Source: Candidatus Latescibacterota bacterium
Lineage (GTDB): Bacteria > Latescibacterota > UBA2968 > UBA8231
Assembly (NCBI GenBank): GCA_965248355.1
Contig: OZ252098.1
Location: 32,001-96,000 of the forward strand
Length of the DNA stretch: 64,000 nt
Direction of reading: 5' to 3'
Shown here: positions 11,980-37,056 of the stretch, in pieces
Position numbering within the stretch: position 1 is the stretch's first letter
Layout of the letters: each line of letters starts with the position of its first letter
Made by a program: the position numbers and the translations under genes
The notes under the pieces: model-generated
Databases searched by the model: none
What the model saw: only the letters and a program-made list of their open reading frames with translations
Told to the model about the DNA's origin: nothing

Positions 11980-12068
11980 TCGGCGGCTCAGGCAGCCGCC
12001 GCGACCAGTCGAAGTACTCGTCCAGCCGGATCAGCTCGAACTCCTCGACGATGTCGGCCGCCGTCCGC
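11980..12068 (-). repeat. Duplicate of the 3' end of the carbon-nitrogen hydrolase gene (36142-37056)
   Basis: 11992-12058 is identical to 36174-36240 (67 bp); synonymous changes beyond; stop-codon context GCCTGAGCCG retained after an internal deletion. Confidence 0.9.
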
Positions 12069-12110
12069 CGCCGGCCTGGGAGCGCGACATGGAGGGCGCC
12101 TCGCAGCAGC

Positions 12111-12356
12111 GCCATCCCGTCTGAGCATGTGGCCAGTGAACTGTTCGGCCATGAGAAGGGCGCCTTCCCCGGGGCTGTTCCGGGACGATCTCTTCTATCG
12201 TCTCGACGTGTTCCGGATCAACATGCCCCCGCTCCGGGATCGACATGGAGATATCCCCCTGCTCGCCGGCCACTTCATCAGGTTATCGGCCTGACGCCCG
12301 AATGCAGCGGCCTTTTGGAATCCTACCCGTGGCCGGGCAACGTGAGCGAGAATCTC
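12111..12356 (+). pseudogene. Degraded sigma-54 activator (NtrC-type AAA+) fragment
   Basis: [34 protein letters not shown] and YPWPGNV motifs spread over different frames with deletions. Confidence 0.8.
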
Positions 12357-12595
12357 GGGGATATCACACATGTGTATTTCTGCGCAGTTCAATCAAGGAC
12401 ATGTGTAAATAATATACACACATATCTCCCTGAATTGAAAAGTGATTTCCGTCGGACATATTGGGAATTAGAGTGGATATACATAACTAATAATCAATTA
12501 TTTATGTGTATATACCTGAAAATGACCGGGGATTGCATCCGGATCGTATTATGTATACATTGAACACTCATCCTCTCACCACAAATCGGAACGGA

Positions 12596-13423
12596 ATGCA
12601 CACAATGAGTTCGGCAAGTGCAGCGATACTCACACCCCGGCACCAGGAATACGGCTCCGAACCGGTCGAGGTTCGCGAGACCGACCATTACAAGGCGGAG
12701 TACATCCATAGCTTCGTCGAGAAGTGGGATGAGCTGATCGATTGGGAACAACGGGCCGAAGGGGAAGGGGACTTCTTCATCAAGCGGCTGCAGGAGCGCG
12801 GCGCCAGCCGCGTCCTCGATGTCGCCACCGGCACCGGGTTTCACTCGGTGCGGCTGTTGAAGGCCGGCTTCGATGTGGTCAGCGCCGATGGCAGTCCGGC
12901 GATGTTGTGCCAGGCATTCGAGAACGCTCGTCGGCGAGGACTGGTCCTGCGCACCGTGCAGGCGGACTGGCGTTTCCTCAACCGCGATATCCACGAAACC
13001 TTCGATGCCGTCATCTGTCTGGGCAACTCTTTCACGCACCTTTTCAAGGAGCGGGACCGCCGCAAGGCCCTGGCCGAGTTCTACGCCGTTCTCAATCACG
13101 ACGGCTTCCTCATTCTCGATCAGCGCAACTACGACGCGATCCTCGACAGCGGGTCCAGGTGCAAGCAGGAGTTCTACTACTGCGGTGACGACATCGTGGT
13201 CGAGCCCGAGCATGTCGATGACGGTCTTGCTCGCTTTGCATACCGATTCAAGGATGGCTCCACCTTCCACCTGAACATGTTTCCGCTCCGCCGGGATTAC
13301 TCGCGGCGGTTGCTGAAAGAAGTCGGTTTCCAGCGGGTGGAGACCTTTGGTGACTTCCAGGCGGAGTACGACGACCTGGAACCCGATTTCTTCGTCCATG
13401 TGGCAGAAAAGAGCTTGGCCTGA
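12596..13423 (+). CDS. gsmt: Glycine/sarcosine N-methyltransferase
   Basis: FVEKWDELIDW, VLDVATGTGFHS, CLGNSFTHLF, LDQRNYD and LNMFPLR motifs. Confidence 0.92.
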   Translation: MHTMSSASAAILTPRHQEYGSEPVEVRETDHYKAEYIHSFVEKWDELIDWEQRAEGEGDFFIKRLQERGASRVLDVATGTGFHSVRLLKAGFDVVSADGSPAMLCQAFENARRRGLVLRTVQADWRFLNRDIHETFDAVICLGNSFTHLFKERDRRKALAEFYAVLNHDGFLILDQRNYDAILDSGSRCKQEFYYCGDDIVVEPEHVDDGLARFAYRFKDGSTFHLNMFPLRRDYSRRLLKEVGFQRVETFGDFQAEYDDLEPDFFVHVAEKSLA

Positions 13424-14277
13424 TGACGACCGGGATTTCAGAATATTCCGAGGTCGTCCAGACCGCCCGGGACTACTACAACAGCGATGATGCCGAAGCC
13501 TTCTACTCGACGATCTGGGGTGGCGAGGACATCCACATCGGCATGTATCATCGCGAAGGGGACAGCATCGCCGAGGCGGGTCGCCGGGCAACGGCACGCC
13601 TGGCGCGCACTCTGGAGCCGCTGGGCGACTGGGCACGCGTGCTGGACATGGGCTCCGGGTATGGCGGCCCGGCCCGGTATGTAGCCGGGATGTACGGGTG
13701 CCGGGTCACAGGGCTGAACCTGAGTGAGATGGAGAACGCCCGGGCGCGGGGACTCAACGCCGAGCAGGGGCTGTCAGACCGGGTTGAGATCGTCGACGGC
13801 AGCTTCGAGTCGGTGCCGGCGGACGACAGCAGCTTCCATGCGGTGTTCTCACAGGACGCTTTGTTGCACAGCGACCGACGCGACCGGGCCGTCGGTGAAG
13901 CGGTTCGCGTGCTCAAGCCGGGTGGAGTTTTCGCCTTCACCGACATCATGCAGGCGGACGATTGCCCGCCGGGCGTCCTCGACCCGATCCTTGCGCGGAT
14001 TCACCTGACCAGCTTGGCCTCTCCCGATTACTACCGGGGAACGGCGACGGAATACCCTCTCGAGGAAACCGGTTTCACCGACCTCACGCATCATCTCGTA
14101 CGCCACTATGGAGAGGTGTTGGACGAAACGGAAACACGCGAGTCCGAGCTGCGCGATCAGATCAGCGAGGACTACCTGAGCAACATGAAGCGCGGTCTGG
14201 CGCGATGGGTCGAGGGCGGAGAAAGGGGCTACCTCGTCTGGGGAATTTTCGCGTTTCGCAAGTTGAGCCGGTCATGA
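13423..14277 (+). CDS. sdmt: Sarcosine/dimethylglycine N-methyltransferase
   Basis: YYNSDDA..FY..IWGGEDIHIG, LDMGSGYGG and SQDALLH motifs; overlaps the gsmt stop. Confidence 0.92.
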   Translation: MTTGISEYSEVVQTARDYYNSDDAEAFYSTIWGGEDIHIGMYHREGDSIAEAGRRATARLARTLEPLGDWARVLDMGSGYGGPARYVAGMYGCRVTGLNLSEMENARARGLNAEQGLSDRVEIVDGSFESVPADDSSFHAVFSQDALLHSDRRDRAVGEAVRVLKPGGVFAFTDIMQADDCPPGVLDPILARIHLTSLASPDYYRGTATEYPLEETGFTDLTHHLVRHYGEVLDETETRESELRDQISEDYLSNMKRGLARWVEGGERGYLVWGIFAFRKLSRS

Positions 14278-15815
14278 GCGGTACCGCTGGTTCGCTGGCA
14301 GACCCCTCGAAGCCCGGGCGGCGGAACCGGCTCGGTCTCGAAATAAACCAGACCGTCTTCTGGGCCTCGGCGGCCCTGGTGGTCCTCTTCGTCGCGTTCA
14401 CTCTGCTGAACCTGAGCGGGATGACCGGGATCTTCGACGCTGTTCTCGAGTTCATCACGGGGCAGGCGGGATGGTTCTTCGTGCTCTGTGTGAACGTCTA
14501 TCTGGCCATCGTCCTGTTTTTTCTTTTCAGCCGCCACGGCCGCGTTCGTCTGGGCGGCGACGAAGCGCGCCCCGACTTCAGTTACTGGGGCTGGCTGTCG
14601 ATGCTGTTCAGCGCCGGCATGGGCATAGGGTTGATGTTCTGGAGTGTGGCCGAGCCTATCTACCATTTCGACAGCCCCCCGTGGGGGGAGCCGCATACCG
14701 CCGAGGCCGCCCGCCTGGCCATGGGCATCACCTTCTTCCACTGGGGATTTCACGCCTGGGGACTCTACGGTCTGATGGCGCTGGCCCTGGCCTACTTCGC
14801 CTACAATCGCGGCCTGCCGCTGACGGTGCGCTCCACTTTCTACCCGCTCCTGGGGGAGCGGATCCACGGTTTGGCCGGGGACGTGATCGACATACTGGCG
14901 ACGCTGGCGACGATCTTCGGCCTGGCCACGTCCCTGGGACTGGGTGCGCAACAGGTCAACGCCGGGTTCGCCTACCTCTTCGACATCCCGCAAGACGTGA
15001 CGGTGCAGGTGGGTCTGATCGCCGGAATCACGGCCATGGCGACGATCTCCGTGGTCCTCGGCGTCGACCGGGGAATTCGACGCCTGAGTCAACTCAACGT
15101 CATCCTGGCCTGTCTGTTGCTGCTGTTCGTAATGGCGGCCGGCCCCACCCGTTACCTGCTCGATGCCCTCGTGCAGAACTTCGGCATCTACATACAGGAG
15201 CTGCCGCGGCTGAGCTTCTGGACCGAGGCCTACCGCAACACAGGCTGGCAGCACGGCTGGACCCTCTTCTACTGGGCCTGGTGGATCGCCTGGTCTCCTT
15301 TTGTCGGGATTTTTGTCGCCCGTGTGTCGCGCGGCCGCACAGTGCGCGAATTCGTCGGTGCCATCCTGCTCGTACCCACCCTGGCCACCTGCGTGTGGCT
15401 GACCGTGTTCGGGAATGCCGCACTGCACGTCGAGCTCTTCGGCGCCGGCGGCATCGCCGCGGCTGTGAAAGAAGACGTCGCGGTTGCCCTCTTTCAGCTG
15501 CTCGAACACTATCCACTGACGTCGCTCACCGTGACGCTCGCGGTGTGCATCGTCATCACCTTCTTCGTCACCTCCTCGGATTCGGCCTCCCTCGTCGTAG
15601 ACATCATCACCGCAGGCGGCCATCTGGATCCGCCGCGGATCCAGAGGGTGTTCTGGGCTTCGATGGAGGGCGTCGTCGCCGCCGTGCTGCTCATGGGTGG
15701 GGGGCTGCTGGCATTGCAGACGGCGGTGGTGACCACAGGTCTGCCCTTCGCGGTCGTGCTGCTGCTGCTCGGCTTCAGTCTGGTGCGAGGCATGAGCGCG
15801 GAGCGCAATCGGTGA
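14274..15815 (+). CDS. BCCT-family betaine/choline/carnitine transporter
   Basis: MLFSAGMGIGL, FHWG.HAW, WTLFYWAWWIAWSPFVG and FFVTSSDS motifs. Confidence 0.95.
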   Translation: MSGTAGSLADPSKPGRRNRLGLEINQTVFWASAALVVLFVAFTLLNLSGMTGIFDAVLEFITGQAGWFFVLCVNVYLAIVLFFLFSRHGRVRLGGDEARPDFSYWGWLSMLFSAGMGIGLMFWSVAEPIYHFDSPPWGEPHTAEAARLAMGITFFHWGFHAWGLYGLMALALAYFAYNRGLPLTVRSTFYPLLGERIHGLAGDVIDILATLATIFGLATSLGLGAQQVNAGFAYLFDIPQDVTVQVGLIAGITAMATISVVLGVDRGIRRLSQLNVILACLLLLFVMAAGPTRYLLDALVQNFGIYIQELPRLSFWTEAYRNTGWQHGWTLFYWAWWIAWSPFVGIFVARVSRGRTVREFVGAILLVPTLATCVWLTVFGNAALHVELFGAGGIAAAVKEDVAVALFQLLEHYPLTSLTVTLAVCIVITFFVTSSDSASLVVDIITAGGHLDPPRIQRVFWASMEGVVAAVLLMGGGLLALQTAVVTTGLPFAVVLLLLGFSLVRGMSAERNR

Positions 15816-15889: not shown

Positions 15890-16035
15890 CTACATCGCCC
15901 TCCCGACGCGCCCGATCCAGGCCCTCAGATCCATGGCCAGGCTGAGGAACGTAGGCACCAGAAACAGGGTGAACAGCGTGGACAGCAGCAGGCCGCCGAT
16001 GACCACGCTTCCCAACCCCCTATACAGTTCGGACC
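15890..16035 (-). repeat. Diverged duplicate of the last 146 bp of the RND permease gene (31913-32058)
   Basis: 10 differences in 146 bp, 8 of them synonymous (including stop TAG/TAA). Confidence 0.92.
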
Positions 16036-16280
16036 TAGATCGAATCACGGCATGGTCAGAACCGAGGTGCGCTCGCGTGATGCTGACTCGCATCTTGGAC
16101 ACCTGTTTCCGGATGGCCCGAGCCGACCGGGGTACGATACTGCATCAACTCTGCTGCGCTCCGATTTGTCTCGCGTGACGAACTTGAGGCGCAAGGCTAC
16201 GGGGAATACTTGGACACGTGATCGCGCTGAGCAAGCAAAACATGCGCGTATCACACAACCGACAACCAGGAGGATCGAAA

Positions 16281-17390
16281 ATGTTGAACAAAACTAGGTG
16301 GGCAGGTGCAGCGGCCGCCCTTGGAGCGTTGCTCTTGATATCGACTGCAGCAAGTGCTGCGCATCATTTCGAATCATCGCTGTCACAGGCTGAGCCGACA
16401 TTGGACCTTACGGATGTCTATGTTTTTCCATCTGAACGAACTGGATATACCGTGGTCATCGCAAATGTGAACCCGCATGCCGAACCGGGAGCCACATCGC
16501 CTTTCGACGACAACGGTCTATACAGCATGCACATTGGCCAGGATCAGGAGCTATCGGACGGTCTGACGCTGACGTTTCAGTTCACCGGTACCAAGGGACG
16601 TGTCGGGTTTGTCAGCGGGGCCAATGAAGGCATCGGCTCGCGAGGCTCGATGATAGGCGAGGTCAATCTCGATCGATCGGCCGATATCAGCAAAGGTTTG
16701 AAAGTGTGGGCCGGTGCGATCCGTGACCCGTTCATGGGCAACTGTGTCGGGTTGGCCCGGCAGCACGTGAGCGAGGCCAGTGGTCAGTTCAATCCCCAGG
16801 TCTACGACAACAAGGTGGACTTTTTCGAGCAGCGAGCCTCAGGTTCGCTTGTGGTCGAGGTCCCCAATTCAATGCTCGGTCAAAGCGTCTATTTTTACGC
16901 CACGACCGCCAGATATGCCGATGGCGATTGGATCCAAATCAACCGGATGGCAAATCCGCTTCTGACGCACATTTTCATGCATTTCGATGCCCAGAACACG
17001 GTGGAGCATGTGTCACATCGTCCGGATACTGATGGCATGCGGTCATCCGCGATAGCGGGACATACCCTTCGGATGGTCACGATGGCCGGGACCCATGAGC
17101 GCGATGCAGTTGCATACACTGATGAGGTCGTGAAGCGGCTGCTGCCGGATATGATCGGGTACACCGTCGGCGGCTCCGCAGAGTACTCGGCAGGGACCAC
17201 TGGAGGGCGCAAGCTCGCCGACGACGCAATGGATTCGCAGATTAGCCTCTTCTGGGGCAAGACCGTGACGGATGGAGCCAACTACAACGATGATCGATAT
17301 CAAGCGAGCTTTCCCTACGTCATTCCGCTCAGCACCCTTCCGGACGGCAGGCCGCCTAGATGGGACGAGCGTACAAGTTGCGCCCCTTAA
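16281..17390 (+). CDS. DUF4331-like exported protein
   Basis: Signal peptide; HHFES...[21 protein letters not shown] and GR.L.DD motifs; AGGAGG RBS. Confidence 0.75.
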
Positions 17391-17441
17391 GTGGAAGTCA
17401 GCGGCTTCCGTCGGATGGGATACTCCGGCAGGTCCGCATCG

Positions 17442-18837
17442 GAGCTACTATCGAAAGGTGTGGAAAAAGAGAAAAGGCGACCCTACCCTTCCTATTTTAG
17501 CAGCACACCACAAACCGCCCGGATGACGCCGGGCTTGGAAGGAGAGAGTCGCCGTGAAGGAATCTATGTTGGAGATCCCCCGCGCGTCCATGCCCACCTG
17601 GGAGACCTTGGAAGGATGGGTCCGGGGCTGGATCCAGGACCTGCTGCAGCGGATCCTGGAGGAGGAGGTGACCGAAGCGCTCGGGCGTACGCGGTATGCG
17701 CGCCGGTCGGCGGTGGACGCCCCGGGCTCGCGCAACGGCTACGGCAAGCCGCGGCGGCTGGCGCTGATGTCGGGCCCCATCGAGGTGAGACGGCCGCGGA
17801 TTCGAGGCCTGGAGGAGCGCTTTGAGAGCCGCATCCTGCCGCTGTTCCAGCGACGCACGCAGGAGGTGACCCGGCTGCTGCCCGAACTCTACCTGCACGG
17901 GCTGTCGCAGGGCGACTTCGAGCTGGCCTTGCGGGGCCTGCTGGGCGACGGGGCGCCCCTGTCGCCCTCGTCCATCGCCCGTCTGCGGGCCACGTGGGAA
18001 GAGCAGTTCGAGACCTGGCAGCAGCGGCGCCTGGACGACCGGGAGTTGGTCTACGCCTGGGCCGACGGCATCTACGTGAAGGCCGGCCTGGAGAAGGACA
18101 AGGCGGCGTTGCTGGTCGTCATCGGGGCCCTGAGCGACGGCCGCAAGGAGATCCTGGCGATACGGCCCGGCCATCGCGAGTCCACCGAGTCGTGGCGAGC
18201 CGTGCTGCGCGATCTTCGGGACCGCGGGCTGCCGGCGCCGCGCCTGATGCTGGCCGATGGCGGCCTGCCGATCTGGAGCGCCGTCGACCAGGTCTGGCCC
18301 GAGGCCGCGCAGCAGCGCTGCTGGAATCACAAGATCCTCAACGTGCTCAACGACCTGCCCAAGCGCGTGCAGGGCGCCGCCCGGGCGCTGCTGACGCAGA
18401 TCCCCACGGCCAAGACCCGTCAGCAAGCCCAGAGACGACGCGATCGCTTCGTGGCTCGCTACGGCGAGGCCTATCCGGCCGCGGCGGCCACCCTCGAGCG
18501 CGACTGGGATCGCATGGTCACGTTTTACGATTTCCCGGAAGCGCACTGGAAACATCTGCGAACGACGAACCCGGTGGAGAGCCCCTTTGCCTCGGTCCGT
18601 CTGCGAACCAACGCGGGCAAACGCTACAAGCGGGTCCAGGGGGCCACCGCTCTCATCTGGCGCCTGCTGAGGGTGGCCGAGACACGATTTCGCAAGCTCA
18701 ACGCGCCCGAGCTCCTGCCGGCGGTCTTCGCCGGTCGGAGATACCAGGACGGAAAACCGATCCAAGAGGACGCCTCTACCAGGGAAGGGAACAAGAGGGC
18801 CGCCTGATCTCGTTTACACACCTTTTGACACGACCTC
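17442..18837 (+). mobile_element. IS256-family insertion sequence
   Basis: Imperfect terminal IRs (GAGCTACTATCGAAAGGTGTG / CACACCTTTTGACACGACCTC) around the transposase; no target duplication seen. Confidence 0.8.
17554..18807 (+). CDS. IS256-family transposase
   Basis: RNGY, WADGIY, ES..SW, ADG, QRCWNHK and LRTTNPVES motifs. Confidence 0.93.
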   Translation: MKESMLEIPRASMPTWETLEGWVRGWIQDLLQRILEEEVTEALGRTRYARRSAVDAPGSRNGYGKPRRLALMSGPIEVRRPRIRGLEERFESRILPLFQRRTQEVTRLLPELYLHGLSQGDFELALRGLLGDGAPLSPSSIARLRATWEEQFETWQQRRLDDRELVYAWADGIYVKAGLEKDKAALLVVIGALSDGRKEILAIRPGHRESTESWRAVLRDLRDRGLPAPRLMLADGGLPIWSAVDQVWPEAAQQRCWNHKILNVLNDLPKRVQGAARALLTQIPTAKTRQQAQRRRDRFVARYGEAYPAAAATLERDWDRMVTFYDFPEAHWKHLRTTNPVESPFASVRLRTNAGKRYKRVQGATALIWRLLRVAETRFRKLNAPELLPAVFAGRRYQDGKPIQEDASTREGNKRAA

Positions 18838-18933: not shown

Positions 18934-19227
18934 TCATGTGGTTGCCTTGACCAGCGGCTCAATGCCACTGGTGTCGGTGGTAGCCCTGGCCACATCCAGG
19001 TCATACATCCGCTGAAGGTTCAGCCAGAACTCCGGAGTTGTCCCCAGGGCCTTTCCTATCTTCAGCGCGGTGTCTACGGTGATGGACCTACGACAGTGGA
19101 CAATATCGTGGATGCGGAGCGGTGGCACCCCGATGGTCTTCGCCAACCGGTACTGGGTGATGCCCAACTCCTCCATGATCTCCGAGAGATGCTCTCCCGG
19201 GTGTATCGGCTCGGCCGTGTTAGTCAT
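18934..19227 (-). CDS. higA: HigA-family antitoxin (HTH-XRE)
   Basis: HPGE.L, HTH, R.IT.DTA and FWLNLQ..YDL motifs. Confidence 0.93.
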   Translation of the reverse strand: MTNTAEPIHPGEHLSEIMEELGITQYRLAKTIGVPPLRIHDIVHCRRSITVDTALKIGKALGTTPEFWLNLQRMYDLDVARATTDTSGIEPLVKATT

Positions 19228-19238
19228 TGATGTCCTCC

Positions 19239-19517
19239 TCAGTGATAGTCGGTGATTTCCATCTCCATGGCTCCCTGGTCTGTCCAGATGAAGCACAACC
19301 GCCATTGGTCGTTGATGCGGATGCTGTGCTGGCCAGCCCGGTCACCCCGCAGGGCTTCCAGTCGATGGGATGGCGGTACCCGGAGGTCACTCAACGCCAT
19401 GGCGGCGACCACCCGCTGTAACCGCATCCTTGCCCTACGTTGGATGTCATGAGGCAGGCGCCGAGCAATTTGCCCGTTGAAGAGCTGCTCGGCATCCCTG
19501 TCCTTGAATCGGTTCAC
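19239..19517 (-). CDS. higB: HigB-family (RelE-like) toxin
   Basis: DLRVPPS.RLEAL.GDR.GQHSIRINDQWR.CF motif; toxin-first gene order. Confidence 0.93.
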   Translation of the reverse strand: MNRFKDRDAEQLFNGQIARRLPHDIQRRARMRLQRVVAAMALSDLRVPPSHRLEALRGDRAGQHSIRINDQWRLCFIWTDQGAMEMEITDYH

Positions 19518-19555: not shown

Positions 19556-20094
19556 TAAGTATAGGAAAAATGAGGCCCCTTTTTTCTCTTGCCAAGGCGC
19601 GAACGCACCGCAAGGGTCAGGGCAAGCCTGCTGATGATCGTTTGCAGGTCGTTTGACCGAGCTGGCAGTACGGTTTGGTCGCCTGTGGCCCCGTATCGGG
19701 TCCAACCCGGTACTCGATGAGGCCATTCAGGACATACTCCTGCCTACTCCCGGGGCCGGGAGGCCATCGCGGAGGAGGTCAGGCGGCGAACTCCAACTGC
19801 GGCTGCGGCGGGGCCCTCGGCGGGGGCCTCACCGGCAGCCCCACCCCCTCCAGATAGGTCCGGATCGAGGTCGGATCGGTCAGGGCGGCGATGATTCTCA
19901 GACGACCTCCACAGGCTGCGCATTCGCTGAGGTCGGCGCCAAACACCCGGGCCAGCAGGGCCGCCCACCCCAGGCGATGGCCGCAGGGCGGAGCGCTCGA
20001 AACGCGGTCCGCCGACGGCTCGGCAACCGGCTTGGCCGGCACGATGCGGCCGCGGTCCCGGGCCCGGGGGGCCAGGACCCCGTGGTAGCGCAGG
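19556..20094 (-). mobile_element. Partial copy of the IS91/ISCR-like element (transposase 3' end + oriIS end)
   Basis: 539 bp nearly identical to 22642-23180 (two mismatches noticed); ends in TTTTTCCTATAC. Confidence 0.9.
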
Positions 20095-24795: not shown

Positions 24796-24813
24796 CGTTT
24801 TAACGTTAAAACG
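24796..24813. promoter_or_regulatory. Perfect 18-bp palindrome, probable TA autoregulatory operator
   Basis: CGTTTTAACGTTAAAACG, 13 bp upstream of the antitoxin start. Confidence 0.65.
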
Positions 24814-24914
24814 CCAAAGGCACAGCTCGTCCTCGACGTGGAATGGTAGCTGCCGGTCCGGCGAGCGGACAAGTCCTGAGCGGTGAGTGTGGAGCGTGGC
24901 GATGGCTGGAACAT

Positions 24915-25010
24915 TCATGGAGCGAACTTCTGTATCCGCTTGTTACCCACGTCGGCCACGTAGATGAAGCCTTCGTCGTCTACGGCCACGTTCCCGGCGA
25001 AGAATCTGGT
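24915..25010 (-). pseudogene. 3'-end fragment of an NHL-repeat gene
   Basis: Translates VAVDDEGFIYVADVGNKRIQKFAP-stop with no upstream gene body. Confidence 0.65.
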
Positions 25011-25015
25011 CCCCG

Positions 25016-25174
25016 TCACCTACCCTTCCGCCGTCGCCGCTGTCTTTTCACGGCCTCGCGCAATACGTATTCCACCTGGCCGTTCAGACTGCGCAATTCG
25101 TCCCGGGCCCATTCGTTGAGGTCAGACCATACCTCGGGATCAATGCGCAGGAGAATGGATTTCTTCTTGGCCAA
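25016..25174 (-). CDS. Arc/RHH-like DNA-binding protein (52 aa, absent from the ORF track)
   Basis: MAKKKSILLRIDPEVW..L.EWA.DELRSLNGQVEY.LREAV; typical partner downstream of SPFH genes. Confidence 0.8.
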   Translation of the reverse strand: MAKKKSILLRIDPEVWSDLNEWARDELRSLNGQVEYVLREAVKRQRRRRKGR

Positions 25175-25199
25175 GAAAGTCCTTACGCCGCGGAGTGAA

Positions 25200-26066: not shown

Positions 26067-26100
26067 GGGGAGCTCCTTGCGGGAAGCGGTGTGGAGCGGC

Positions 26101-26127
26101 GATATCTTTAGGATATCAAATTGATAT
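26101..26127. promoter_or_regulatory. GATATC-type inverted repeat upstream of the SPFH operon
   Basis: ATATCA-AAT-TGATAT plus an extra GATATC. Confidence 0.5.
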
Positions 26128-26162
26128 TAGTAATCTACCCGCAAGGAGGGCTTCCCGCAAGT

Positions 26163-27137: not shown

Positions 27138-27923
27138 CAGTGCTCCGGCTTCTCCCCGATCTGGGCGAGGCGCTCCCTGGCCTGCTCGTAGGTCGCATCC
27201 GGAAGCGGGCCGGCGCTGGCCGCCGATACGTTGGCCGCGAGGTGATCCGGATCGATCGTGCCAGCGATGGTCGTATGGCAGTCCGGATGGGTCAGCGTAA
27301 ACCGCAACACGAACTCGTGCCGATTCATGCCTTCGGACAGTTCCTCCAATCGAGCACGGTCCCATTTATCCTGGCGCTCGGCGCCTCCCCGATGACCTTT
27401 GGCGACACCGGCACGGATGATGATGCCAGCTCCAAACTCAGCAGCTTCTCTCATCACGTCCTCAAAACGACGATCCAGGGCTGAATAAGGGATCTGAAAG
27501 GTGTCGAAAACACCCATGCGGGCGAATTGCAGGAGATCGAACCCGTCAGTGGAGACACCGAGGAACCGAGTCTTGCCCGACCGTCTCAATTCCTGCAAAA
27601 CCTCGACGAGACCGCCATCCTCGACGTCTTCGACCGTCGCGTTGTGCAACTGCAGCAGGTCCACATGATCGGTTTTCATACGCTGCAGGCTTTCCTCCAT
27701 GTTCTTGCGCAACTGCTCTGCCGTCCAAATGTGCCGGGGTTCGTACCTGACGCCTTCCGGGCCCACGTTGCAACCGCATTTGGTCGCCAGCAGGAACTCA
27801 TCCCGCCGGTGGCTGATGTACCTGCCGATGCGAACCTCACTCAGGCCGTAGTCGGGGGCTGTATCGATGAAGTTGATGCCCGCATCCAACACTGAATTGA
27901 GGACGGCTTCTGCCCGTTGTTCA
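27137..27923 (-). pseudogene. Aldo/keto reductase lacking its N-terminus (cut by IS1380)
   Basis: GINFIDTAPDYG, LATKCG and DLLQLH motifs; 5' end abuts the IS IR. Confidence 0.85.
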
Positions 27924-29471
27924 CCCTCTGGTTGCATAAGAACAGGGCTTTTTCCTCCTCCGAACGGCCCATTGTCACTTGCGGCGCCCTCTGAAAAAGG
28001 GGTATTTGATACTGTCGACCAAGACATGTATCGACCCCTTTCAGAAGGACACCGCAAGTGAGGTTCAGAAAAGAAGACATTTTGGCCCGTTTTCACAAGC
28101 TCCCGCATCTTCGCTTCGAGGATCAACAGCTGACTTCCTTTGCGGGAGCCATCGTTTTTCAACTGCTCTTCCGGCGCCTGGATCTGAAGACTCGGCTGAA
28201 GTCGTGCTTCCCCGCCAAGAGCTCCGCGATCTTTGGTCCCCATCTCATGGTGTTGTTGCTCATCGTGCATCTGCTGCTGGGCTTCCGGCGGCTGCGAGAC
28301 ATGGACTATTACCGGGACGATCCGGTGGTGCTGCGTCTGTTGGGCTTGCGCCGCCTGCCGGACGTGGCCACCCTCAGTCGCGCCCTCGCAAGAATGGGCC
28401 GTTCGAGTATCGAAAAAGTGCGCCACCTGTCTTCGGTCCTGGTGGTGCAGGCGCTCCAGCGCGAGCGGTTCCCCCGTCTGACCCTCGACTTCGACGGCTC
28501 GGTGATCTCCACTTGTGGTCATGCCGAAGGGACCGCCGTGGGCTATAATCCGAAAAAGAAAGGGGCGCGCAGCTATTACAACCTGTTCTGTACGGTGGCG
28601 CAGACCGGACAGTTCTTCGATGTCCTTCACCGCCCCGGCAACGTCCATGACAGCAAGGACGCCCATGCGTTCATGATGGACGCCTTCGATCGGGTGCGCG
28701 ACGCGCTGGCGCCTACCGTGCTCGAGTCCCGACTCGACAGTGCCTTCTTCAGCCAGGACACGCTCACGCTCCTGGACCTGTATGGCGTCGAATGCACGAT
28801 CAGTGTCCCTTTCGAACGCTTCCCCGTACTCAAGGACCAGATCGAAGCGCGCCAGCGCTGGCGCTTTCTCGATGAACACTGCGCCTATTTCGAGAGTGAC
28901 TGGAAACCCAAACGCTGGCCCGCCTCGTACCGATTTCTCTTGGTCCGCCGTGCGGTCGCGCGTCAGACCAAGGAACCGCTGCAACTGGATCTGTTCGAAC
29001 CCCGGCCCATCGATCATGAGTACCGCGTTCTGGTGACCAACAAGAGGATCTCGGCCCGCCGCGTGCTCCTCTTCCACTATGGCCGCGGCGCCCAGGAAGG
29101 GATCTTCGCCGAGGCCAAGCAACAGGCCGGGCTGGATCTGATCCCCACCCGGCGGCTGCTCGGCAACCAGATGGTGACTTTGTGTGCGATGATGGCCCAC
29201 AATCTGGGACGCGAAATGCAGATGCGGGCGCAGGCGCGATCCAACTATTCGCGCGCCAAACGCCCGGCGGCGTGGACCTTCCAGACCTTGGACACTCTGC
29301 GTCATCGCTTCATTCAGCGCGCCGGGCGCCTCACTCGGCCCAAGGGCGAGTTGACCCTGACCCTGAACTCCAATCCAAAAGTGGAAAAAGATCTGTTGCA
29401 TTTCCTCGAAACACTGAAGGATGCCGCCTGATCACACCACCGCCTTCAAACAGATTTATGCAACGTTAGGG
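27924..29471 (+). mobile_element. IS1380-family insertion sequence
   Basis: IRs CCCTCTGGTTGCATAA / TTATGCAACGTTAGGG; flanks are unrelated truncated genes with no target duplication. Confidence 0.88.
28058..29431 (+). CDS. IS1380-family transposase
   Basis: LTSFAG, LDFDGS, RPGN.H, RLDSAFF, Y..RG..E and LR..FI..AGRL motifs. Confidence 0.92.
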   Translation: MRFRKEDILARFHKLPHLRFEDQQLTSFAGAIVFQLLFRRLDLKTRLKSCFPAKSSAIFGPHLMVLLLIVHLLLGFRRLRDMDYYRDDPVVLRLLGLRRLPDVATLSRALARMGRSSIEKVRHLSSVLVVQALQRERFPRLTLDFDGSVISTCGHAEGTAVGYNPKKKGARSYYNLFCTVAQTGQFFDVLHRPGNVHDSKDAHAFMMDAFDRVRDALAPTVLESRLDSAFFSQDTLTLLDLYGVECTISVPFERFPVLKDQIEARQRWRFLDEHCAYFESDWKPKRWPASYRFLLVRRAVARQTKEPLQLDLFEPRPIDHEYRVLVTNKRISARRVLLFHYGRGAQEGIFAEAKQQAGLDLIPTRRLLGNQMVTLCAMMAHNLGREMQMRAQARSNYSRAKRPAAWTFQTLDTLRHRFIQRAGRLTRPKGELTLTLNSNPKVEKDLLHFLETLKDAA

Positions 29472-29476
29472 TAAAG

Positions 29477-29920
29477 ATGAAGGGACTGATCGAACTGATC
29501 GTCGACATCGGCTTCAAGGGCGATCGCGCCAAAGCCCGCGACACGCTCGGCCGCGTCTACGAGTACTTCCTCGGCAAGTTTGCCCAGGCCGAGGGCAAGC
29601 TCGGCGGCGAGTTCTTCACGCCGCGCTGCATCGTGCGGCTGCTGGTCGAGATGCTCGAGCCGTACGAGGGCCGCGTCTACGACCCCTGCTGCGGCTCGGC
29701 CGGCATGTTCGTACAGTCCGAGCGCTTCGTGGAAGCCCACGGCGGGCAGAAGACCGACATCTCGATCTTCGGCCAGGAGTCCAATCCTACCACTTGGCGG
29801 CTGGCGCACATGAACCTGACTATCCGCGGCATCGAGGCCAACCTTGGCTCTCAGCCCGCCGACAGCTTCCTGCGCAACCTGCACCCCGACCTCAAGGCCG
29901 ACTACATCCTCGCCAATCCG
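29477..29920 (+). pseudogene. hsdM: Internal fragment of a type I R-M methyltransferase HsdM
   Basis: [17 protein letters not shown] and GQESN motifs; breaks at ANP of the NPPF motif. Confidence 0.88.
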
Positions 29921-30268
29921 CTGCGGCGGCCGCACCACGTGCGGCAAGCCGGTGCCCTCCCCGTCGCTCTTCCAGCCGGCGTGCCGCACCGTGACAAAGG
30001 AGCCCTCACAGCGGAAGCTGTGGTAGTCGTCCCCGAGGAACGGATCTTCAGCGAGGATTTCCGTGAGGATGCCGGCCACCGCCGGATGGTCAAGAAGTTC
30101 CTGCAGAGCACCTTGGTAGCCTTGTCTGGCGCCGTCGTAGACTTCGGCCTTCATCGCTTCGATTTCCGCTTCGGACAGGACGGAAGGCAACAGGATCCAA
30201 CCCTGGAGGTCGAAGAAGAACTTCTGCTCTTCGGTCATGGGCACGGGCGCGGCAGTATGGTCGCTCAT
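29921..30268 (-). pseudogene. N-terminal fragment of a phytanoyl-CoA dioxygenase-like protein
   Basis: [22 protein letters not shown] and LLDHP motifs; truncated against the hsdM fragment. Confidence 0.75.
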
Positions 30269-30332
30269 GGTTTCCCCCGTTGGTCGCTTGGAGTGCATCC
30301 GTCGTGGCTCACACTGCAGGGGGCCGGCTTCC

Positions 30333-30758
30333 CTATTCAGCCACCCAGACCCGTCTGAGCGGAACGTCGGGAGACTCGCACACACCGCCATAGATTGTCA
30401 CGGCGGTGATTTTCTCGTTTTGAATCCGGCACAGGTGCACCTCAGTCGCTTCCAGACGTTTGCCATACAACGCTTCGGGCAGTCCGGGAAGAGGCTGGTT
30501 TACAACGCCCTTGTGGCGAAACTCCAAGGCGACCATCTCACCGTCTGCGACGACGTTGAGAATCTCGAGCCGCAGGTCCCGCTCTTCCTCGTGGCAGCCC
30601 CGCCACAGCGCCACCATGTTCTCCGCGCCGCGGATGTCAAGTCCGCCGCCGACCATGGTTGCGTCGTGGGCGTACGTTTCGCGAAGGCGCTTCCAGTCAG
30701 AGGCGAAGGCCGCTTCGAGGGATTCGCGGGCGATACGCGCGTTTACACTGGCAGACAC
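30333..30758 (-). CDS. SnoaL/NTF2-like ester cyclase family protein
   Basis: [15 protein letters not shown] and GKRLE...H..RI..EKI pattern. Confidence 0.75.
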
Positions 30759-30761
30759 TGG

Positions 30762-31829
30762 TCAATCCTCTTTGAACGCGGGCGCGACGTGTTCCGAGAA
30801 CATCCGAAGAGATTTGCAGACCAGGTCGGGGCTCAGGTCTCCAATGCGGGTCCACCCCATGAAGTTCTGCAGTCCCGTGTGTCTCTGGATCCAGCCGATC
30901 TTGTCGGCGACAAAGTCCGGATCGCCTACGATGGCGTGATCGGCCAGGATCTCGTCGAAGGTGATGTTCGAGAACTTCTGTTTCAGTCCCTGATAGAATT
31001 CCATCTGACCGGGAGGCGCCATTTCCGGCGGCGGCGCGATCACCTCGGCAAGCAGGGTGCGGAAGTACCACATGAGTTGGTCGTGGCAATCCTCCCGGGC
31101 TTTCTGGCTGGTTTCGGCCACATAGAGGAACCTCGCCAGGGGGAAGTCCAGTTTGCCCGACATTCCGCACGCGTCCGCGGTCTTGTGGTACGACTCGTAG
31201 AGCTGGAAAACCTCGTCGTAGGGGTGCAGGAACGAGGTCAGGACGTTGTAGCCGTTCTTTATGACCCATTCGTACGTGGAGGGACTCACCGCCGCAACGT
31301 AGACCGGCGGGTGGGGCTGTTGTACGGGCTTCGGGATTACGTTGACTCTCCTGACCTTGTGAAACTTGCCGTCGTATTCGAGAGGGCCCTTCCAGGCTTT
31401 CAGGATGATATCCAGTTCTTCCTGAAACCGGTCGCGGCTTTCCTCGAGGTCGATTCCCCAGTTGTAGAATTCCTCGGCCTGATAACCGCGCCCCACGCCG
31501 AAGAGGAGCCGCCCTTTCGACATGATATCAACGGTGGCGAAGTCTTCCGCGACAATGACGGGATTGTGGAAGGGCAGCACGACAACCGCGGTGCCGATTT
31601 TAATGCGTTCGGTAATGGCCGACGCGTACGCGGCCATGGCATGGATGGACGAGGTGATCGAATAGTAGTTGGCCCCCGGCGCCTTGTGGTCGAAGTGGTG
31701 TTCCGCCAGCCAGATGGCGTCCCAGCCCGTTTCGTCCATGAGTTTGAACTGTTCGAACGCTTCGTGATAAACTTGCGCGTGGTCCTTGCCGGGCGGGGTT
31801 TCCAGCAGATAGAACTGGCCGAATTGCAT
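30762..31829 (-). CDS. Luciferase-like (LLM) flavin-dependent monooxygenase
   Basis: WLAEHHF, LPFHNP..VAEDFAT.D.MS.GRL.FGVGRGY and PKPVQQPHPP motifs. Confidence 0.93.
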   Translation of the reverse strand: MQFGQFYLLETPPGKDHAQVYHEAFEQFKLMDETGWDAIWLAEHHFDHKAPGANYYSITSSIHAMAAYASAITERIKIGTAVVVLPFHNPVIVAEDFATVDIMSKGRLLFGVGRGYQAEEFYNWGIDLEESRDRFQEELDIILKAWKGPLEYDGKFHKVRRVNVIPKPVQQPHPPVYVAAVSPSTYEWVIKNGYNVLTSFLHPYDEVFQLYESYHKTADACGMSGKLDFPLARFLYVAETSQKAREDCHDQLMWYFRTLLAEVIAPPPEMAPPGQMEFYQGLKQKFSNITFDEILADHAIVGDPDFVADKIGWIQRHTGLQNFMGWTRIGDLSPDLVCKSLRMFSEHVAPAFKED

Positions 31830-31867
31830 GGAAGTCTCCTTCGCTGAAACGGTTGTCAAGGGTCCGC

Positions 31868-31910
31868 CGGTCAGGGCGGCGACGATCCGCAGGCGCCCGC
31901 CACAGGCCGC
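31868..31910 (-). mobile_element. ~43-bp relic of an IS91/ISCR transposase gene directly after the RND stop codon
   Basis: Encodes AACGGRLRIVAALT; aligns to 22963-23005 with mainly third-position changes. Confidence 0.7.
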
Positions 31911-35056: not shown

Positions 35057-35063
35057 GACAGTA

Positions 35064-36074
35064 CTAGGGCTGCCTGCGGAGGATGCGCACCGCTTGGCCG
35101 TCACGCAGCCGCTCGTTGCCGCGCACCACGGCTAGATCGCCGGCTGCGAGCTCGCCCATGACGGCCACGTAGCCCTTGTGCGCCAGCCCGGTCTGGACGG
35201 GGCGGCTGAGGGCTTTGCCGTCGCGGGCGAGGTACACGACCTGTCCTTGCGGACCGGAGACCAAAGCGTCCTTGTGCACCAGAAGTGATGCCTCGGCCTG
35301 CGCGATCCGGAAGCGCACCCGTGCGGACATATTGCTGCGCATCCGGCCTTGTGGATTGGCGGCCTCGACGATGACCGGGAAGGTGCGGGAGGAGGCGTAG
35401 CCCTCGGCGGAGATGGCGGTTACGAGGCCGGCGATGGGATCGCCGCCGAGGGCATCGACGACGATGGCGACGCGGTCCCCCAAAGCGAGCCGCGGCACGT
35501 CGTGCTCGGGCACCTCGACGATCACGCGCACCGTGTCGATGGAGATTACCTGTGCGATCTCACCGCCGCGTCCGACCCACTCGCCAACCTCGGTAAAGGT
35601 GCGGATGATGTGCCCGGAGAAAGGGGCGTGGACGAGGAGGTTCTCTACTTGGGCCCGAAGGCCGCCTAATCTGGCTTCGGCACGAGCCAGCTCAAAGGTC
35701 TGGATGCGTAGATCCTGCTCGGAGACCGAGTCGGTGGCGCGCAACCGGCGGCTGCCATCGTGGATGAACTGGCGCAGCGCGAGATCGGCCTCGGCTTCTT
35801 GCAACGCGGCTTGGAGGGGATCGTTGGCCAACGCGAAGAGGGGGTCGCCGGCGCGCACGGTTTGACCGGCGTCCTTGAAGCGCTTGACCACTTGCCCTTC
35901 GGTCTCGGCGGCGACCCGGCTGGAGCGCACAGGGAGGATGCTCCCGACAAAGGAAAGATCCTCGACGAGCGGTTGTTCGAGAACCTCGGCGACGATGACC
36001 GGTGTCGGCGGGCGCTCCTGGCCGGGGAGTGCACTGGGCAGCAAGGTCAGGAGCAGCAGTAGAGCAAAGGGCAT
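35064..36074 (-). CDS. RND periplasmic adaptor (membrane fusion protein)
   Basis: Lipoyl halves G.V..GDPLF and APFSG.I...VGEWV; hairpin; SRTF. Confidence 0.92.
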   Translation of the reverse strand: MPFALLLLLTLLPSALPGQERPPTPVIVAEVLEQPLVEDLSFVGSILPVRSSRVAAETEGQVVKRFKDAGQTVRAGDPLFALANDPLQAALQEAEADLALRQFIHDGSRRLRATDSVSEQDLRIQTFELARAEARLGGLRAQVENLLVHAPFSGHIIRTFTEVGEWVGRGGEIAQVISIDTVRVIVEVPEHDVPRLALGDRVAIVVDALGGDPIAGLVTAISAEGYASSRTFPVIVEAANPQGRMRSNMSARVRFRIAQAEASLLVHKDALVSGPQGQVVYLARDGKALSRPVQTGLAHKGYVAVMGELAAGDLAVVRGNERLRDGQAVRILRRQP

Positions 36075-36141
36075 TTGGGTTCCTCGGCGGGGTGAGAAAG
36101 AGGGCTCGGAGGTGCTGATCGCTCCCAAGCTCATCGCCGGC

Positions 36142-37056
36142 TCAGGCCGGGGCCTTCTCCAGGTGCTCCGTCCGCAGCCGCCGCGACCAGTCGAAGTACT
36201 CGTCCAGCCGGATCAGCTCGAACTCCTCGACGATGTCGGCGGCGGTGCGCTCCTCGGTCTCGCTGTAGAGCACGGAGGTTCCCACCTGCCCGGCGGTGAC
36301 GATGCGCACGGCGTCGCCGTACTTGCCGTGGATGTCGTCGTAGCGGTTCTGGTTGCGGTCGAGGTGCACGACCTCGTAGTCGAGGTTGATGCGGGCCGAG
36401 GCCCAGGGCTGGTAGTTGTTGCTCCGGGCGAGGGTGGTGCCCTGGGGGTCGATGATGGTGCAGGGGGTGCTTCTGTACACGGAGCCGGCGAAGAAGGCCT
36501 GCACGTCCAGGGCCCAGAAGTTCTGCACAAGGCCGCCGTGATACATGGAGCTGAAGAGCAGCAGCCGCGGCTTGAGCTTCTTGTACTGGGCCCGCAGCTC
36601 GCCGAAGTTCAGGTCGAAGCAGATGACCCCGCCCACGGGTCCGAAGTCGGTCTCGATCAGGTGCGCGCCCGGACCCGGGCGGGTCCCGTGGTCGAACTCC
36701 GGGTACACGGGGATGTACTTGCGGTAGACGCCGGCCAGCTCCCCCTGGCGGTCCAGGAGCCCGAGGACGTTGTACACGGCGCCGGTGCCGGGCTCCTTCT
36801 GGTGCACGGGCACGGTGACGTAGCAGCCGTGTTCCCGCGCCAGCCCCGCCAGCAGCTGTGACGTCGGACCCTCGGGCACCTCTTCGTCGAAGGTCCGGCA
36901 GATCGTCTCGGGCAGCACGATCAGGTCGGCCCGGGTGGCCCCGGCGACCCTGGCCACCAGTCCCTTCAGGTCCTCGTGGGTCCGCGCCATCACCTCCTCG
37001 TCGGAGCCGCTGACGGGGGCGTAGGAGACGCAGGCTACGACGGCGTGGCTGCTCAT
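36142..37056 (-). CDS. Carbon-nitrogen hydrolase (nitrilase superfamily)
   Basis: E-K-C triad motifs LPE, YRK and ICFD. Confidence 0.9.
   Translation of the reverse strand: MSSHAVVACVSYAPVSGSDEEVMARTHEDLKGLVARVAGATRADLIVLPETICRTFDEEVPEGPTSQLLAGLAREHGCYVTVPVHQKEPGTGAVYNVLGLLDRQGELAGVYRKYIPVYPEFDHGTRPGPGAHLIETDFGPVGGVICFDLNFGELRAQYKKLKPRLLLFSSMYHGGLVQNFWALDVQAFFAGSVYRSTPCTIIDPQGTTLARSNNYQPWASARINLDYEVVHLDRNQNRYDDIHGKYGDAVRIVTAGQVGTSVLYSETEERTAADIVEEFELIRLDEYFDWSRRLRTEHLEKAPA

Follow-up and report, generated by a model that had tools for sequence, protein, structure and literature searches.

Nested orphan ends of a nitrilase and an RND permease gene in a mobile-element-rich segment of a Latescibacterota genome

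Genes and mobile elements of the locus

The window analysed here is a stretch of 64,000 nucleotides (C1:32001-96000) from a genome of Candidatus Latescibacterota (G000); unless prefixed with C1, positions are those of the window. At the left of the locus lies a minus-strand gene (8934..11345) specifying a protein of 803 amino acids with no Pfam match, followed on the same strand by a gene for 160 amino acids (11394..11876), a divergent allele of a gene found in 4 of the 132 class genomes. Next comes N' (11992..12068, minus strand), an orphan fragment of a CN-hydrolase gene. The gap between N' and the second orphan fragment, R', is filled wholly by a betaine cassette and a decayed activator gene. 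The latter, once a sigma-54 activator gene (Sigma54_activat, E 1.3e-4), is reduced to a frameshifted and degraded 3' part, which together with the AT-rich promoter region of the betaine operon occupies 12069..12540 (plus strand). A weak protein match to this decayed activator also occurs upstream of the betaine operon in genome G017. The betaine cassette (12506..15815, plus strand) consists of three genes, coding for glycine/sarcosine N-methyltransferase (12506-13423), sarcosine/dimethylglycine N-methyltransferase (13423-14277) and a BCCT transporter (about 14300-15815). R' itself (15890..16035, minus strand) is the end of an RND allele, comprising its last 145 nt and a TAG stop.

To the right of R' we found a DUF4331 gene of low GC content (16218..17390, plus strand) with no DNA match among the 40 relatives searched, and an IS256-type element (17432..18837, plus strand) with a Mutator-family transposase (17554-18807), of which 99% identical copies exist at other places in the genome. 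These are followed on the minus strand (18934..19517) by a HigB-like toxin (19239-19517) with its HTH antitoxin (18934-19305), and by a partial ISCR/IS91-type copy (19556..20094) which is 99.6% identical to the 3' end, at 22642-23180, of the larger element of this type (22642..24303, minus strand). The larger element carries a Y2 HUH transposase (22984-24303) with Y2_Tnp and Zn_Tnp_IS91 domains; against the NCBIfam ISCR clade Ia model it scores 289 bits (E 6e-86), under the model's cut-off of 925 bits. Between the two copies is a metallophosphoesterase-HEAT gene (20258..22090, plus strand) flanked by 33-nt direct repeats (20148-20197 and 22149-22181), a motif that may resemble oriIS. A motif related to but diverged from it adjoins another partial ISCR copy at C1:2572320.

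The remaining island genes are an RHH antitoxin-like gene, an SPFH gene, a homocysteine S-methyltransferase and an aldo/keto reductase (24549..27940, minus strand), the last of which abuts an insertion sequence (27922..29473, plus strand) with a DDE_Tnp_1_4 transposase (28058-29431) and six more near-identical copies in the genome (identity rounded to 100%). The homocysteine S-methyltransferase and aldo/keto reductase have counterparts of 91-92% identity in G023, a member of another genus, where they lie on two different replicons. A 5' fragment of an N6 DNA methylase gene (29477..29921, plus strand; profile positions 2-133 of 311) forms the right end of the G000-specific DNA, which spans 11290-29921. 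With HigBA and the RHH gene the island holds two toxin-antitoxin remnants, besides further truncated genes.

Beyond this edge a minus-strand block (29922..31859) contains the first 158 codons of a gene termed P here (30391 down to 29918), a SnoaL-like gene (30333-30758) and a luciferase-like monooxygenase (LLM; 30762-31859). A 43-nt internal ISCR/IS91-type fragment (31868..31910) separates the LLM start from the RND stop. The intact RND permease (31913-35104), a membrane-fusion protein (MFP; 35064-36134) and the CN-hydrolase or "nitrilase" gene (36142..37120) follow on the minus strand, the first two with host-like GC. The open frame of the nitrilase has 597 codons and the nitrilases of relatives match its last ~320 codons only; the frame evidently exceeds the length of the real gene.

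The GC content is 55-61% in most 500-nt windows of about 12000-32000, as against ~69% in the host, but rises to host-like values at the transposase genes of the IS256 and ISCR elements; MFP and RND lie outside the low-GC stretch. In profile searches, the whole genome gave only three tyrosine-recombinase matches (PF00589) and one resolvase match (PF00239), all far from the locus, so that 0/3 and 0/1, respectively, fall within the window; Pfam scans of the island ORFs revealed neither a tyrosine nor a serine recombinase. The earlier note had described the islands as integrase-free. This holds for recombinases, but three intact transposase genes (IS256-type, ISCR/IS91-type and DDE) and one partial copy are located between R' and R.

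The repeats and their context in related genomes

N' equals N, at 36174-36250 in the nitrilase gene, at 74 of 77 bases. The first 67 bases show no difference and the three mismatches, confined to the last 10 bases, are all at third codon positions, as derived from the coordinates. R' (15891-16035) equals R (31914-32058), the corresponding end of the intact RND gene, at 136 of 145 bases, the likeness beginning precisely at the stop codon, which is TAG in R' and TAA in RND. Each repeat is present in exactly two copies in the 5.5-Mb genome (BLAST E 1e-29 for N and 3e-58 for R); all four copies are direct and their order is N' < R' < R < N, which bears out the nested arrangement first noticed from the sequence.

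The recount of the RND copies likewise agrees with the earlier figure of ten differing sites, eight of them synonymous: eight are third-position differences and two change an amino acid. When nine random substitutions were simulated, two or fewer amino acid changes without a stop arose in 0.4% of 20,000 trials (p 0.004). Since this divergence is of the kind expected under coding constraint, R' is probably derived from another functional allele rather than from a fresh local copy, as had been proposed, and it appears to be the allele of a near relative. The proposal for the nitrilase fared less well. Its copy had been credited with the context of the stop codon, but the final 10 codons of the CN-hydrolase gene, and its stop, are missing from N', which is not a complete, displaced old end; the "stop context" is a 13/14 match across a 28-nt gap which falls short of significance when unanchored (p 0.06), and only an anchored test devised post hoc brings it to p ~0.001.

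Short-read assemblers can be led astray by repeats of this size (67-145 nt), and contig C380 of the related genome G004 ends within N. An assembly artefact is nevertheless extremely unlikely. The G000 assembly is a single 5.5-Mb contig, and Logan contigs of three runs from three studies (X15, X19 and X1) independently cross all four fragment junctions (11991/2, 12068/9, 15889/90 and 16035/6) with 0-8 differences. N' and R' are not products of misassembly.

Three congeners have the region assembled (G002, G006 and G007), and in all three the colinearity with the window extends to about 11289-11301, within the left-flank gene, and resumes over 29922-37997, at ~89-92% identity. N' and R' are absent from all three, in which the synteny of RND, LLM, SnoaL and gene P is unbroken. 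The junction 29921|29922 cuts two genes at once: the N6 methylase, whose profile match ends at residue 148, and gene P, which is intact (273-283 aa) in the congeners. Because gene P is truncated here, G000 represents the derived state. The same junction bears on the earlier picture of an inner cargo that arrived as one unit: the right 2 kb (29922-31913) is syntenic with RND and the island edge cuts gene P, so the interval is not a single unit. The site directly after the RND stop is variable, being occupied by a GNAT-like gene in G007 and G002 and by the 43-nt ISCR fragment in G000 and G006. The MFP/RND pair is found at the same place in all four nitrilase-bearing congeners.

The 160-aa gene shares 61-69% protein identity with its copies in G006 and G007, as compared with 85-96% for the neighbouring genes, and in the relatives it is parted from the left flank by 3.9-5.5 kb that are missing from G000. 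This divergence, taken with the absent DNA, fits an imported haplotype. The betaine cassette is 94% identical to copies in G004 and G007, which are sited at another locus; the flanks of their operon lie ~63 bp apart in G000 (C1:4642175|4642238). The cassette is a relocated operon of the clade whose usual site is empty in G000, a finding that does not support the earlier interpretation. R' begins ~75 nt from the BCCT stop (15815), and homology to the flank downstream of BCCT in G007 resumes no more than ~5 nt from the R' stop.

The repeats could in principle have arisen through local segmental duplication of RND-MFP-nitrilase within G000, after which deletion and insertion would have spared only two remnants. 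Tandem duplications are common, the IS copies present here could promote them, 67 nt of N' match N without a difference, and G000-specific bases occur in both fragments, in R' as judged against G006 and G007. We consider this origin very unlikely, however: the mostly synonymous R/R' differences (p 0.004) are unlike the neutral decay of a dead copy, N' followed by R' is the reverse of the order in a colinear second copy, and the likeness ends at the RND stop though the true downstream DNA is conserved in relatives.

Origin of the two fragments

The earlier note had inferred that cargo arrived twice on DNA carrying a replacement 3' end. In a strict form of this scheme two successive, precise insertions, into the 3' ends of the nitrilase and then the RND gene, each supplied a surrogate end that made the gene whole and displaced the old one, as with e14 in icd, through a recombinase that acted in trans or was later lost. 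The geometry and substitution pattern of R/R' match those of icd/icdC, R' starts at the stop codon, and the nesting is perfect. The two empty sites expected on this scheme were not seen: among the 132 class genomes the 160-aa gene never directly follows the nitrilase, and in the relatives RND is never followed by BCCT, the next gene being LLM, or a GNAT-like gene and then LLM, in 3/3. Nor was a donor haplotype with the 160-aa gene beside the nitrilase and RND followed by BCCT found in the 132 class genomes or in two metagenome scans. One 842-nt contig from run X2, of ~5-fold depth, runs from the 160-aa gene through N' and then for 174 nt into DNA unlike the island; it could be the outer empty site, or a chimera that arose by joining at the 67 nt shared by N and N'.

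Further orphan 3'-end duplicates do occur in this genome. A genome-wide scan recovered 22 pairs of a gene and an orphan repeat; in ten of them the repeat lies at the 3' end of the gene and the orphan is situated downstream. Two inserts without an integrase show the same geometry as here, each being bordered by a second copy of a gene 3' end, and clean empty sites for them exist in 3/3 and 4/4 relatives. Precise insertion remains doubtful in our opinion, including the provision for a recombinase acting in trans or lost. The inner unit would include 2 kb whose synteny is ancestral as well as a gene severed at 29921|29922, and the outer cargo would take in the host-GC MFP/RND pair at its conserved place; N' lacks the last 10 codons; and the repeats all differ in sequence, so that one sequence-specific recombinase cannot serve them all, while the few recombinase genes of the genome are far away.

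An equally tentative suggestion is that in this lineage cargo is added time and again, by an integrase-independent route, behind ordinary protein genes and chiefly where two genes meet tail to tail, each event duplicating 44-150 nt of the gene 3' end. No gene would be broken, because each addition duplicates the 3' end of its target, and moved cargo would keep the 3'-end fragment of its previous neighbour, so that the sequence of moves could be read from the nested fragments. The process might be driven by circles bearing short stretches of chromosomal homology or by a trans-acting factor that has escaped recognition. If this is true, the main locus represents two such events overwritten by IS activity. 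An osmolyte operon, a Type ISP restriction enzyme and a RidA-type gene are among the cargo seen so far on this reading.

The insert at C1:4290336-4290968 (633 nt) is a patchwork inside a 55-nt target duplication, consisting of 60 nt copied from a gene end that lies 2.7 kb away, a relocated gene and a 16-nt repeat of the same end. Such a structure recalls repair-based capture, in which foreign DNA enters staggered breaks by end joining (Ku/LigD) or template switching; its expected traces are extended duplications of the target and, at the joints, short copies templated by nearby genes. Ku is encoded in the genome. For the main locus we hold this to be improbable, as the coding-type substitutions of R' indicate that it was not templated from the resident R, and duplications of 44-145 nt are long for staggered breaks.

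We are inclined, with moderate confidence, to regard the two fragments as recombination scars in a hypervariable, mobile-element-rich segment, where host recombination joined two haplotypes, rather than as att sites belonging to a dedicated insertion system. G000 would then carry, side by side, two alternative versions of the DNA downstream of RND. The first, as in the congeners, would run through gene P, SnoaL, LLM, RND, MFP and nitrilase; the second, from a closely related strain, through the left-flank gene, the 160-aa gene, the nitrilase end, the betaine cassette and the RND end. The two would be linked by ~14 kb of IS/ISCR-borne cargo, with R' as the final 145 nt of the other strain's functional RND allele and N' as a remnant of the second haplotype's nitrilase end. 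The fragments would have survived because the incoming homologous DNA was added and not swapped. We infer the second haplotype, the order of events and the recombination route; candidates for the last, all of them carried out by host recombination, are a single crossover with a circular intermediate, homology-anchored illegitimate joining, or unequal pairing. The ISCR/IS91-type rolling-circle element in the island is a plausible source of circles with chromosomal homology. Neither R' nor N' touches an end of an ISCR/IS91 element; the RND stop is touched by the 43-nt internal fragment. That R' coincides exactly with a stop codon, and that 3'-end duplicates recur elsewhere in the genome, could hint at a more directed process than random scarring.

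If the scars have been read rightly, they show how accessory regions are assembled in an uncultured, host-associated bacterium with no site-specific integrase taking part. Host recombination would pile up haplotypes of sister strains, which insertion sequences would then trim, and the leftover gene ends would form a readable record of which versions met. The genome-wide pattern also raises the question of defence and stress gene insertion at recombinase-free hotspots. If the fragments are ordinary recombination debris, R' and N' are pseudogene fragments and the value of the observations is limited to annotation, that is, to these fragments, the relocated operon and the overlong nitrilase frame.

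Comparison with known systems

The use of protein-gene 3' ends as targets had been put forward as a new mode, but it is already known from element e14, and from phage 21, in the icd gene of E. coli. There, as with R/R', an intact gene is accompanied by an orphan direct repeat of its 3' end at the far side of the insert: the last 165 nt of icd are element-borne and the displaced original end is icdC. In the E. coli K-12 record the 165-nt repeat is 92.7% identical, with 12 mismatches, 11 of them third-position, and 2 amino acid changes. These numbers are nearly alike those of R/R', while N', without its last 10 codons, fits only partly. Unlike this locus, e14 has genes for an integrase and an excisionase of its own next to the att site, against none in 64 kb here, and the DNA between the present repeats is not one foreign unit and has no empty site among the genomes compared.

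Partial tRNA 3' ends delimit the island arrays found at tRNA genes, some of whose elements, of the tycheposon type, are cargo-only and integrase-free. These arrays resemble the present locus in that cargo accretion is marked by repeated 3'-end fragments of the target, and differ in having tRNA or tmRNA targets and recognisable integrases in the array, whereas the targets here are protein genes, each of different sequence.

The passages on ISCR1 in PMC7707992 and PMC3575428 describe circles re-inserted via homologous recombination that leave partial 3'-CS duplications. As far as these passages portray them, the ISCR1-linked complex class 1 integrons share with this locus an IS91/ISCR-type Y2 transposase between the repeats, cargo from several sources, a partial duplicate of a conserved flank that bounds the captured DNA, and no need of an integrase. 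They differ from it in that the transposase here falls below the NCBIfam cut-offs and no element end abuts R' or N'.

Transformation can generate merodiploids, according to the portion of PMC3784515 dealing with them, and both alleles are kept after the exchange, as proposed here; the pneumococcal duplications described there are 100-900 kb long and form between IS repeats, unlike the short fragments of G000. Homology-facilitated illegitimate recombination, as outlined in PMC3240628, combines a colinear anchor on one side with a gene-truncating illegitimate joint on the other, and this locus has both a homologous anchor on one side and a gene-truncating joint on the other.

Two nested pairs of 3'-end repeats

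A repeat search of the window (C1:32001–96000, C1 being the genome contig) recovered both pairs of repeats reported in the earlier note, and confirmed that they are real, direct and nested. The end of the CN-hydrolase ("nitrilase") gene, here called N (36174–36250), recurs as an orphan fragment, N', at 11992–12068 with 74 of 77 bases equal. The end of the RND permease gene, R (31914–32058), recurs as R' at 15891–16035 with 136 of 145 bases equal. All four copies are in direct orientation and follow one another as N' < R' < R < N; each repeat is present in exactly two copies in the 5.5-Mb one-contig genome (E-values of 1e-29 for N and 3e-58 for R).

R' begins at the stop codon (TAG vs TAA), and beyond the stop the flanks are unrelated. 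The nine coding differences between R and R' give two amino-acid changes, a result equalled by random substitution in 0.4% of 20,000 trials. Since random substitution so rarely produces this few amino-acid changes, most of the divergence of R' would have accrued inside a working gene, and the claim that the RND copies evolved as functional coding alleles is upheld. In the N/N' pair the first 67 nt are identical and are followed by three mismatches, all at third positions. The last ten codons are missing from N'; the other nine nitrilase 3' ends in the alignment retain them. The "stop context" that had also been attributed to N' is a 13/14 match over a 28-nt gap (unanchored p of 0.06). A 7-mer common to several of the repeats is, by our estimate, not significant once the post hoc search is allowed for.

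Mapping across the junctions, which had been proposed as a check, was carried out with Logan contigs of sequencing runs, a form of evidence that cannot reveal circles or rare forms; all four fragment junctions were crossed in three runs from three studies. The contigs of one run (X15) break inside N', as expected of a repeat. In another (X2), one low-depth contig extends from the 160-amino acid gene beside N' across N', after which its sequence no longer follows that of the island. This contig is the sole hint of an outer empty site, and may be a chimera formed through the 67-nt repeat; no weight is given to the stretches that X2 leaves uncovered. Contig joints with sides of 20–43 nt were considered as alternative forms, and were taken instead as jumps through conserved or repeated words. 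A conserved word (10 protein letters) of a decayed sigma-54 activator, at 12135–12172, draws many unrelated contigs in the runs, which explains the local depth peak and loose ends.

Gene content and composition of the island

Between approximately 12000 and 32000 the GC content drops from about 69% to 55–61% in most 500-nt windows, although the IS256 and ISCR transposase genes stand out as peaks of host-like GC; the genes for the membrane-fusion protein (MFP) and RND permease are also host-like in GC. From left to right, the Pfam and NCBIfam scans located a decayed sigma-54 activator fragment (12069–12540); genes for a glycine/sarcosine N-methyltransferase, a sarcosine/dimethylglycine N-methyltransferase and a BCCT transporter, all between this fragment and R'; and, right of R', a DUF4331 gene, an IS256-type element, HigB with an HTH antitoxin, and a 539-nt partial copy of an ISCR/IS91-type element. 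These are followed by a metallophosphoesterase-HEAT gene bracketed by copies of a 33-nt motif (20148–20197 and 22149–22181), a full ISCR/IS91-type element (Y2 transposase, 22984–24303), RHH, SPFH, homocysteine methyltransferase and aldo/keto reductase genes, a DDE IS with six more near-identical copies in the genome (rounded to 100%), and a DNA methylase fragment comprising the first 133 profile positions only. Next come the first 158 codons of a truncated gene (gene P), a SnoaL-like gene and a luciferase-like monooxygenase gene (LLM). The gap from the LLM start to the RND stop holds 43 nt from the interior of an ISCR/IS91-type element (the last part of the transposase frame and a further 21 nt; 31868–31910), and the RND, MFP and CN-hydrolase genes complete the series.

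The 33-nt motif is AT-rich, and a related, diverged motif adjoins another partial ISCR-type copy at C1:2572320. It may be an element end, perhaps akin to the oriIS of ISCR elements. No match to PF00589 or PF00239 was obtained within the window, and to that extent the description of the island as integrase-free holds, but the region is packed with other mobile genes.

The homocysteine methyltransferase and aldo/keto reductase genes (26194–27922) share 91–92% identity with genes that lie on two separate replicons in a genome from another genus (G023), and on the strength of this identity a recent transfer between genera is suggested. Comparison of the island with a plasmid collection gave a single weak BCCT match and nothing else. 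At 36142–37935 there is a 597-codon open frame which exceeds the real gene; distant relatives match only its last ~320 codons (CN-hydrolase). Its upstream portion corresponds to a distinct gene that several genomes carry elsewhere.

Relatives and the betaine cassette

The flanks of the island are common to four congeners (G002, G004, G006 and G007) at about 86–92%. In G002, G006 and G007 the window aligns up to 11289–11301 and resumes at 29922 through 37997, and no second nitrilase or RND fragment was found in these three genomes. The assembly of G004, the closest relative, is without the LLM-to-RND part and hence uninformative there; its contig C380 ends inside N, which merely hints at a repeat. 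In all three assembled relatives the RND gene is followed by LLM, SnoaL and gene P, the last as a complete frame of 273–283 amino acids. Gene P of G000, the genome under study, ends at codon 158, and the methylase fragment ends at the very same point. Because gene P is cut where the methylase fragment also stops, these alignments indicate that G000 is the derived state, and that the DNA specific to it spans 11290–29921 rather than the stretch between R' and the RND stop. The "inner cargo", which the earlier note had regarded as one arriving unit, is thus partly ancestral. The position immediately beyond the RND stop is itself variable: G002 and G007 have a GNAT-like gene there, G000 and G006 the 43-nt ISCR-type piece.

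The 160-amino acid gene beside N' has only 61–69% protein identity to the copy in the relatives, which have an extra 3.9–5.5 kb between this gene and the left-flank gene. Four carriers were counted among the 76 genomes of the family, and likewise four among the 132 of the class. An empty site had been predicted in which the nitrilase gene is directly followed by the 160-amino acid gene; among the 132 class genomes searched, none of the four carriers has this configuration. Two metagenome scans returned nothing for the protein or for the 26-nt junction between its gene and N'.

All three betaine genes are present in G004, and the BCCT gene alone in G007, both 94% identical to the copy in G000. 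They sit at their usual site, between sequences which in G000 are ~63 bp apart (C1:4642175 and 4642238), that is, the site is empty there. In other genera the operon lies in unrelated contexts. The island copy reaches further left, into the decayed activator gene, the fragment of which has a weak protein match upstream of the operon in another genome (G017). On the right, ~75 nt separate the BCCT stop (15815) from the R' stop, and the match to the BCCT-downstream flank of G007 picks up within ~5 nt of the R' stop. Since the left side runs into the activator gene and the right side resumes the G007 flank at the R' stop, the whole interval from N' to R' is one cassette. At some time this betaine cassette would have lain directly downstream of a functional RND allele.

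In G007 the BCCT gene is bracketed at the usual site by a ~23-nt imperfect direct repeat. This att-like repeat was judged not to be a repeated element, its 11-mer occurring 24 times against 40 expected. A palindromic AT-rich motif upstream of the operon, considered as an IS end, was read instead as regulatory because G004 and G007 both retain it at the usual locus.

Other 3'-end duplicates and a possible history

The search for further orphan 3'-end duplicates that had been suggested was undertaken in G000 alone, using two-copy local direct repeats of 40–400 nt, at least 85% identical and 0.2–60 kb apart, together with a gene set from a GC3 heuristic which misses some genes, the nitrilase included. 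Fifty repeats were recovered, 22 of which pair a gene with an orphan, and further 3'-end cases were indeed found. In 10 of the 22 pairs, R/R' among them, the repeat lies at most 31 nt from the gene stop with the orphan downstream (G000 only). An upstream orphan accompanies a 3'-end repeat in one pair and a 5'-end repeat in three or four.

Two of the inserts are clean. A 633-nt insert (C1:4290336–4290968; locus L021, 4837–5469) lies downstream of a small gene, putatively encoding a CBS-domain protein (read by eye), and is bounded by a 55-nt duplicate of the 3' end of that gene with one synonymous mismatch. The orphan copy agrees with the relatives, and the site is empty in all three (G002, G006 and G007). 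The insert is a patchwork, beginning with a 60-nt copy, stop included, of the end of a dehydrogenase gene 2.7 kb away, followed by a RidA-type gene with an orthologue elsewhere in the relatives, and then by 16 nt of the same dehydrogenase end. The second, a 4.1-kb low-GC insert (C1:5432991–5437124; locus L033, 2492–6625), carries a single Type ISP restriction-modification gene, with no recombinase inside it, and sits between convergent formate-tetrahydrofolate ligase (fhs) and DUF6807 genes. A 43–44-nt duplicate of the spacer plus the DUF6807 3' end forms its borders. Adjacent, overlapping flank matches imply an empty site in four of four relatives, and for G002 and G007 the sequence across the junction was inspected. 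Six further pairs compared with relatives were complex and had no clean empty sites; the orphan is also in G007 for one, and inside a G000-specific segment for two. A Ku gene is encoded at C1:5146477–5147019, so end joining would be available to the organism. Because of these genome-wide findings we keep open the idea, which we nevertheless consider improbable, that cargo is gained time and again in this lineage, each time with a long duplicate of the end of the adjacent gene and no recombinase in cis.

All of this is most simply explained if G000 carries, one beside the other, two haplotypes of a single variable region. One, of congener type, would comprise gene P, SnoaL, LLM, RND, MFP and nitrilase; the other, from a sister strain, would comprise the left flank, the 160-amino acid gene, the nitrilase end, the betaine cassette and RND. 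Cargo borne by IS and ISCR elements would join the two, with illegitimate joints at 29921/29922 and 16035/16036. R' would then be the end of the sister strain's RND gene, and N' the remnant of an earlier event of like sort within the sister-strain haplotype. The donor haplotype was not found in the reference genomes (132 class genomes) or in the two metagenome scans. The earlier note had proposed that cargo carrying an allelic 3' end restored the target gene and displaced the old end, twice in succession. Its outcome is similar to that of tandem haplotypes, in that an allelic 3' end comes in and the other end is orphaned, but there is no precise unit, no targeting machinery, and part of the presumed cargo is ancestral; the interpretation is supported in part, and the observation itself stands.

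Tandem haplotypes might arise by a single crossover of a circle bearing chromosomal homology, and such a circle and crossover have been proposed for ISCR1 and the duplicated 3'-CS (PMC7707992; PMC3575428). Such products are also known from homology-facilitated illegitimate recombination (PMC3240628) and from transformation-induced merodiploidy (PMC3784515). The circle and crossover route is attractive because an ISCR-type element sits in the island; none of the ends of this element touches R' or N'.

In the E. coli K-12 record prophage e14 begins within icd, 165 nt from the end of the gene, and the displaced end, icdC, lies after the prophage. The icd and icdC copies have 12 differing sites, 11 of them at third positions, with two amino-acid changes, and the pattern of divergence between R and R' looks the same. 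Prophage e14 carries intE and xisE, whereas the G000 island is without a recombinase. The known kinds of event involved here would be 3'-end duplication of the e14 type and partial duplications that are ISCR-type or driven by recombination.
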